DNA of 30,887 bases from assembly GCF_003334405.1 (NCBI RefSeq), contig NZ_QOWM01000028.1; one strand, given 5' to 3'. Position numbers and translations under genes: made by a program. The notes beneath the pieces are model-generated. The model was not told the DNA's origin, did no database searches, and saw nothing but the letters and a program-made list of their open reading frames with translations. This document shows, piece by piece, positions 26,925 to 26,977 of this stretch. This DNA is from Escherichia coli. Its GTDB lineage: Bacteria > Pseudomonadota > Gammaproteobacteria > Enterobacterales > Enterobacteriaceae. Numbering within the stretch: the stretch's first letter is position 1; each line of letters begins with the position of its first letter.

Positions 26925-26977
26925 AAAAAGGCTGGTGACTAAAAAGTCACCAGCCATCAGCCTGATTTCTCAGGCTG
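26925..26977 (-). terminator. rplL-rpoB intergenic attenuator (two hairpins, the second followed by a U-tract)
   Basis: On the minus strand downstream of rplL: CAGCCTGA-GAAA-TCAGGCTG (complement of 26958..26977), then GCTGGTGAC-loop-GTCACCAGC (complement of 26931..26954) followed by CTTTTTG. Consistent with the known partial terminator between rplL and rpoB. Confidence 0.6.

Follow-up and report, generated by a model that had tools for sequence, protein, structure and literature searches.

The window, i.e., the whole 30,887-nt stretch of Escherichia coli DNA that was analysed, carries the secE-nusG-rplKAJL-rpoB cluster on its minus strand. The spacer between rplL and rpoB is 319 nt in length (26676-26994), with the annotated start of rpoB being an internal ATG of its open reading frame (26675, minus strand). 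The element considered here lies in this spacer, on the coding strand of the rplKAJL-rpoBC cluster, which is where tL7 lies, and it comprises two adjacent hairpins and a U-run. Read along the RNA of the minus strand, the order is UAA GCCAACCCUUCCGGUUG CAGCCUGA GAAA UCAGGCUG AU GGCUGGUGACU UUUU AGUCACCAGCC UUUUU GCGCUGUAAGG. We refer to the two stem-loops as hairpin A and hairpin B; their coordinates and those of the surrounding features are collected in Table 1.

Table 1. Features of the rplL-rpoB region, in order of transcription (window coordinates).
Feature	Position	Strand	Basis or remark
rplL (ribosomal protein L7/L12), coding sequence	26995..27360	-	Open reading frame list; identical K-12 region annotated rplL
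rplL TAA stop	26995-26997	-	
5-bp hairpin CAACC-CUUCC-GGUUG	26978..26992	-	3-17 nt past the rplL stop; in the MFE structure
Rfam RF00630 (P26) match	26929..26990	-	74.5 bits vs gathering score 36; E = 1e-14
Hairpin A, CAGCCUGA-GAAA-UCAGGCUG, 8 perfect bp	26958..26977	-	Helix 1 of Rfam P26
Hairpin B (terminator stem-loop), GGCUGGUGACU-UUUU-AGUCACCAGCC	26930..26955	-	Helix 2 of Rfam P26
U5 run, transcript release site	26925..26929	-	3' end mapping and sequence
Remaining rplL-rpoB spacer, leader of read-through rpoBC transcripts	26676..26924	-	Starts with GCGCUGUAAGG, which several gammaproteobacterial orders share
rpoB (RNA polymerase beta subunit)	22647..26675	-	Open reading frame list; K-12 annotation

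A whole-window Rfam scan also identified the sroH RNA (17433-17593, plus strand, 201 bits) and a TPP riboswitch (11640-11740, plus strand, 74.8 bits), both of which are expected for the E. coli region downstream of rpoC. The rplJ leader (27916-28278, minus strand) is where the L10-(L7/L12) autoregulatory structure should lie; in the same scan it gave no Rfam family at the gathering score, and its matches were all sub-threshold (Arrc08 of Actinobacillus, 38 bits vs 219; V_AS5 of Vibrio, 30 bits vs 96). The rplJ-rplL spacer contains a weak terminator-like 6-bp hairpin (27419-27436, minus strand) with a UCUUUUU tail and a 3' end at 27409.

The arms of hairpin A (26970-26977 and 26958-26965) are 100% complementary and enclose a 4-nt loop, and the hairpin folds at -13.1 kcal/mol (z = -5.8). 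Hairpin B is larger, with 11 perfect base pairs, seven of which are G-C, formed by arms at 26945-26955 and 26930-26940 around a 4-nt loop; an alternative reading has 10 bp and a 6-nt loop. With a folding energy of -20.5 kcal/mol (z = -7.4), hairpin B provides the stable stem expected of an intrinsic terminator. The original prediction had described two perfect stems of 8 and 9 bp, and of this the perfect pairing and the 8 bp of the first stem hold, while the second stem is 11 rather than 9 bp long. Its placement of the element 18 to 70 nt after rplL is exact when counted from the last base of the stop codon (26995). The U-run that it placed behind the second hairpin is likewise present, and begins 0 nt past hairpin B as UUUUU followed by GCGCU, so that the U-tract has only five U's within its first 8 nt. 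Hairpin B and the U-run are the attenuator proper. Folded as a unit, the 53-nt element reaches -35.9 kcal/mol (z = -9.35), which none of 200 dinucleotide shuffles equalled (-12.0 +/- 2.6 kcal/mol). Because the terminator consensus scan was unenriched overall (4 sites vs 2.3 expected), the case rests on the strength and conservation of this site and not on the scan count. A bidirectional terminator was considered and rejected; the plus strand forms the same hairpins, but no T-run follows them.

The gap between the rplL stop and hairpin A is filled by a weak 5-bp hairpin (-3.9 kcal/mol, z = -3.3), which lies within the unpaired 5' part of the Rfam P26 model and would be covered by a ribosome terminating at the end of rplL. 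On the plus strand, the consensus scan picks out these positions as terminator-like (CAACCGGAAGGGTTG, then GCTTATTTAA) and directed into rplL; this call is weak and at chance level. On the other side of the U-run, the leader of the read-through transcripts is also structured (-88.8 kcal/mol, z = -3.8), and contains a 17-nt inverted repeat (26773-89 with 26855-71). This structured stretch probably corresponds to the part of the rpoB leader that RNase III is known to process. The sequence GCGCUGUA(A/G)GG immediately after the U-run is kept in the Enterobacterales, Vibrio-like and Alteromonadales loci of the comparative set described below (L002-L016).

The 319-nt spacer is 100% identical to that of E. 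coli K-12 (strain EMG2), a comparison that the original prediction had proposed and that bears out its description of the regulatory architecture as canonical. Among complete E. coli genomes, 5419 of 5426 likewise have the spacer at 99% identity or more; the median of one spacer copy per genome rules out a REP-like repeated element. The match to Rfam RF00630 (P26) spans the full model (1-66), lies well above the gathering threshold and preserves the two-helix architecture, with both helices paired and no non-canonical pairs, so that the element is a member of this family. P26 was first predicted as a P. aeruginosa sRNA located between same-strand ORFs of 4071 and 366 nt (Livny et al., PMC1524904), which are rpoB and rplL. 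It was later described as a partial terminator whose E. coli homologue, tL7, terminates 80% of transcription, with read-through raised by rifampicin or by rpoB mutations (Qi et al. 2014, PMC4324240). Other reports refer to an attenuator in the rplL-rpoB spacer that decouples ribosomal-protein from beta/beta' expression (PMC4670729), to a spacer attenuator that stops ~70% of transcription (bioRxiv 10.1101/2021.11.05.467461), and to an “rplL terminator” with a poly(U) tail of five, employed as a stable second terminator (Morita et al., PMC9765468). The K-12 identity, the P26 match and this literature uphold the earlier proposal that the hairpins correspond to the known partial terminator setting the ratio of ribosomal-protein to RNA polymerase expression.

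Compared with tL7 of E. coli (Barry, Squires & Squires 1980; Morgan & Hayward 1987), the element has the same locus and sequence and does not differ in any respect; in both there is a hairpin and U5 40-70 nt after rplL, and the published 3' end falls on the last U. The likeness to Rfam RF00630, “Pseudomonas sRNA P26”, extends to a full-length match, both helices and the same rplL-rpoB location, but there are differences in detail. In E. coli, the 8 bp of helix 1 are uninterrupted and capped by a GAAA loop, whereas the RF00630 consensus has 5 bp, a 3x3 internal loop and 2 bp; two pairs of helix 2 also differ, being U-A and A-U in E. coli but U-G and G-C in the consensus. We consider it highly likely that the element is the canonical rplL-rpoB intercistronic attenuator (tL7; Rfam P26), i.e., a leaky U5 terminator of sub-maximal efficiency, and found no evidence that contradicts this identification. 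The element is thus already known, and is present here in its standard K-12 form.

Published Term-seq data agree with this assignment. In the tables of Adams et al. 2021 (PMC7815308, supplementary file 1), the dominant 3' end of the region is at MG1655 position 4,180,995 (plus strand), with the flanking sequence GCCTGAGAAATCAGGCTGATGGCTGGTGACTTTTTAGTCACCAGCCTTTTT|GCGCTGTAAG and 61,409 reads in LB at OD 0.4 or 23,672 reads in M63. By sequence and by coordinate this position is 70 nt past the rplL stop and corresponds to 26925 in the window, the last U of the run, so that RNA 3' ends occur in vivo at the U-tract, as for an intrinsic terminator. The Term-seq check that the original prediction had suggested was therefore already in print. 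In stationary phase (LB, OD 2.0) the 3' end is at 4,180,997, or 26923 in the window, and neighbouring 3' ends within rplL and after rplJ have just 865-1,230 reads (PMC7815308). The hairpin noted above in the rplJ-rplL spacer coincides with one minor 3' end (MG1655 4,180,511; 753-1,230 reads). The strings in the Adams table are 61 nt in length with the 3' end at position 51, as a comparison of the rplJ entry with the stop codon of rplJ confirmed; the 40 nt upstream given in the caption do not fit the strings. In the DirectRNA-seq data of the same study, the untreated downstream/upstream ratio is 0.79, i.e., there is no 5-fold drop, in an assay that is not a measure of coverage (PMC7815308).

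Conservation was examined by an RplL protein scan with one genome per species, which gave 80 loci, from the Enterobacterales out to unrelated phyla. In 46 of the 80, the rplL stop is followed by a GGCUGG...CC(A/G)GCC hairpin with a run of 3-6 U's; most of these loci are from Gammaproteobacteria of many orders, with a few from Betaproteobacteria. In these the spacer from the rplL stop to the stem is 17-101 nt (median 39 nt), and the U-run contains 4 or 5 U's in 41 of 45 species. In the alignment of the 46 sequences, which include related species and hence non-independent samples, 98.9% of the cells of the 10-bp consensus stem are paired, and compensatory changes (50 cells) occur at six of its ten pairs. 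None of 500 shuffles reached the observed values for paired cells, both-side changes, further pair types or covariation score, two of 500 reached six compensatory pairs, and sliding the partner columns destroyed the pairing. Since the search pattern required the stem-base sequence, the conservation of the lower six pairs is partly a matter of ascertainment, and the independent covariation comes from the upper four pairs only, for which 11, 5, 15 and 15 sequences are changed on both sides.

At the fourth pair of the terminator stem (alignment columns 14/37; 26952 with 26933 in the window), 32 of the 46 species have a U-G wobble and four have C-G, while the enteric group, to which this window belongs, has U-A. 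The stem base around this conserved wobble is rich in G-C pairs. The 5' arm of the terminator also resembles the Chi octamer; GCTGGTGA (26947-26954) is one mismatch from Chi in E. coli, and many other Gammaproteobacteria have the exact octamer at the same position. The window contains seven copies of GCTGGTGG, compared with 1.0 expected, all of which are on the minus strand (1083, 5265, 5913, 10979, 12366, 16015 and 19390). The resemblance of the terminator arm to Chi is probably a coincidence combined with the usual strand bias.

A second hairpin between the stop codon and the terminator is found at nearly all of the loci that carry the terminator, and ends 0-3 nt from the terminator in 31 of 45 species, although its sequence is unrelated between orders. 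An alignment of 17 species (MAFFT and RNAalifold) recovered only the terminator helix, with the variable hairpin A not being registered across orders. As hairpin A could not be aligned in this way, we used per-sequence folding z-scores with flanking controls of equal length (dinucleotide shuffles). The mean z of the pre-terminator spacer is -2.21, compared with -0.78 for the 3' end of rplL and -0.46 for that downstream of the terminator (paired Wilcoxon p = 6e-6 and 3e-7, values that are optimistic in that the species are related). In a scan of the loci before L042, the Rfam P26 model recognized 10 of the first 20 and none of the next 20 at the gathering threshold; among the loci scanned, the positives belong only to Enterobacterales, Vibrio-like species and some Alteromonadales. 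The model misses the other loci because their helix 1 diverges from the enteric/Pseudomonas form.

The GGCUGG-type hairpin is missing from loci outside the Gammaproteobacteria and, within that class, from the SUP05 group (L030, L032, L045, L065, L067, L068 and L075). At these an unrelated terminator-like hairpin often occurs ~0-60 nt after rplL. A stop signal in the rplL-rpoB interval would thus seem to be a solution arrived at repeatedly, by way of different sequences.

The observed anatomy, K-12 identity, family membership, covariation of hairpin B and published 3' end can be combined with the partial efficiency and physiological role reported in the literature into a working model. RNA polymerase from the strong ribosomal-protein promoters would transcribe rplL and hairpin A, followed by the 11-bp hairpin B and U5. 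Hairpin B would then form in the RNA exit channel while a weak rU:dA hybrid occupies the active site, and most complexes would release the transcript at the last U (26925). A minority of polymerases would read through into the structured leader and rpoBC, presumably because the U-tract has only five U's before GCGC; a strong stem with a short U-tract is the design that we would expect of a terminator meant to leak. The mRNA for beta/beta' would thereby be set at a fraction of that for L7/L12. With an impaired polymerase (rifampicin, rpoB mutations) there would be more read-through, amounting to a homeostatic control of RNA polymerase synthesis. Transcription of rpoB would in this way be throttled by the attenuator upstream of it.

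Hairpin A is most likely an accessory structural module, which may space the terminator or insulate its folding, hinder 3' exonucleases as a second barrier, or do both. As an insulator it would sit between the terminating ribosome and the terminator, and as an exonuclease block it would serve the abundant rplJL mRNA. That the terminator needs such an insulator thermodynamically was not supported for E. coli, since the terminator pairs keep probabilities of ~1 in an in silico mutant without an intact 5' arm of hairpin A; hairpin A may have a kinetic role in folding.

The element resembles generic Rho-independent terminators in its perfect G+C-rich stem, 4-nt loop, immediate U-run and 3' end within the U-run. 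It differs from them in being intra-operonic and leaky, in its short U-tract (5 U's and then GCGC), in the second conserved structured module that precedes it, and in a stem-base sequence that is kept far beyond one genus. Some of these features raise the question, already an old one, of whether termination here is substantially dependent on Rho, NusA and NusG, with the hairpins serving as a pause or entry platform and the whole as a regulated, factor-sensing attenuator. Ralling and Linn reportedly described effects of rho and nusA mutants at the attenuator in 1987. Data in favour of factor dependence come from Adams et al. (PMC7815308, supplementary file 2), whose list of bicyclomycin-sensitive “Rho termination regions” has an entry at 4,181,000 (26920 in the window), 5 nt beyond the 3' end; its Rho score is 1.99 (p = 3.9e-46). 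Counts upstream and downstream of this point are 1503 and 1193 in the untreated sample and 1925 and 3040 with bicyclomycin, which represents ~2-fold more read-through under Rho inhibition in this one published data set; the effect is borderline by the authors' guide value of 2.0, and may be indirect, through RNA polymerase homeostasis after a global loss of Rho termination. In addition, Linn & Greenblatt 1992 report that NusA and NusG raise in vitro read-through at this attenuator, and the stem-base sequence and short U-run are kept across orders, beyond the needs of a generic terminator, although the conservation of the lower stem owes something to the search pattern. Against this, the hairpin and U-run make up an intrinsic terminator of textbook form, and the 3' end of the RNA maps exactly to the last U. 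Rho-dependent termination calls for an upstream rut region that is C-rich, G-poor and unstructured, but the RNA here is strongly structured; in terms of base composition we found no C-rich stretch, and GC skew along the spacer is either close to zero or tilted towards G on the RNA strand. Nor is the downstream RNA C-rich or G-poor, so that no rut site is evident. We thus regard a substantial dependence on factors as rather unlikely, while “purely intrinsic” may be too simple a description.

A more specific and more doubtful version of this idea, suggested to us by the sequences, is that the conserved stem base GGCUGG / CC(A/G)GCC might itself be recognized by RNA polymerase, NusA, NusG or Rho. 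The recurrent stem base (often with U-G as its fourth pair), the short U4-5 and the adjacent structured module are hints in this direction, and the ~2-fold effect of bicyclomycin would fit with such recognition. If this were true, read-through would report the free transcription capacity of the cell. It would also refine an old idea, as autogenous or factor-dependent control of the attenuator has been proposed before.

The preferred reading, a leaky intrinsic terminator, also has to be distinguished from one in which the hairpins are mainly stabilizers of the mRNA 3' end, and the 3' end itself arises by exonuclease trimming back to the double hairpin. Term-seq 3' ends alone do not separate termination from such processing, two adjacent stable hairpins make an effective exonuclease block, and read-through transcripts are known to undergo processing in the spacer (Barry et al. 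1980). The position of the 3' end argues for termination, since it coincides with the last U of the tract, at a distance of 5 nt from the stem, and trimmed ends would be expected nearer to the stem base. Furthermore, read-through at the attenuator has frequencies that were measured in vitro (Linn & Greenblatt 1992), and is altered by rifampicin and rpoB mutations (PMC4324240). Trimming in place of termination is therefore very improbable, with the proviso that the roles of stabilizer and terminator are not exclusive.

The Rfam entry raises a different possibility, namely that the element is an independent sRNA gene (“P26 sRNA”) or the source of a stable regulatory RNA derived from a 3'UTR. RF00630 is typed as “Gene; sRNA”, and Livny et al. 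(PMC1524904) obtained Northern signals with a P26 probe in P. aeruginosa. The same authors ascribe the multiple bands to overlap with the UTRs of adjacent ORFs, and the band was 250 nt as compared with a predicted 65 nt; a later paper (PMC4324240) treats P26 as a partial terminator. In the window, our scan found no promoter-like sites between the rplL stop and the hairpins, and the P26 match starts 5 nt after that stop, on the same strand as both neighbouring genes. An sRNA gene is hardly credible on these grounds. The element does not have the independence that the sRNA label implies, and this concerns the label of RF00630, which is ill-suited to the function, and not the homology.

The least tenable of the alternatives, to which we attach almost no weight, is a terminator/antiterminator switch of the leader-peptide type, set by translation of the end of rplL: the rplL stop is just 17 nt upstream of hairpin A, and the 3' arm of hairpin A together with the linker (AGGCUGAUGGCU) is 83% complementary over 12 nt to the 3' arm of hairpin B, with which it could pair, but this best alternative pairing is worth -11.8 kcal/mol vs -34.7 kcal/mol for the two hairpins, which leaves no exclusive fold of comparable stability, and it still precedes the U-run and so would not prevent termination; moreover, the terminator pair probabilities remain at 0.95-1.0 (0.57 for the outermost pair) with the 5' arm of hairpin A destroyed in silico, a ribosome at the rplL stop cannot reach hairpin B, which starts 40 nt downstream, and the sequence of hairpin A is not conserved across orders, so that there is no conserved alternative pairing. 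The switch was thus rejected on both energy and logic. The element shares with the leader-peptide attenuators of trp, his and phe the name “attenuator” and a terminator hairpin ahead of the regulated genes. Unlike them, it is without a leader peptide, a competing antiterminator fold or coupling to ribosome position, and it represents a fixed-ratio, polymerase-sensitive leak rather than a sensor of a metabolite or tRNA.

For this E. coli genome, the confirmation means that the window carries the standard regulatory architecture of the species, and no more than that. Two modest additions concern the family: P26, listed by Rfam as an “sRNA”, is the same element as the classical attenuator tL7, and a design in which a structured spacer leads into a strong stem with a short U-run is maintained widely across the Gammaproteobacteria. 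For the cell, the element sets the mRNA of the RNA polymerase beta/beta' subunits relative to ribosomal-protein mRNA, and when the polymerase is impaired, by rifampicin or by rpoB resistance mutations, it lets cells raise polymerase synthesis.
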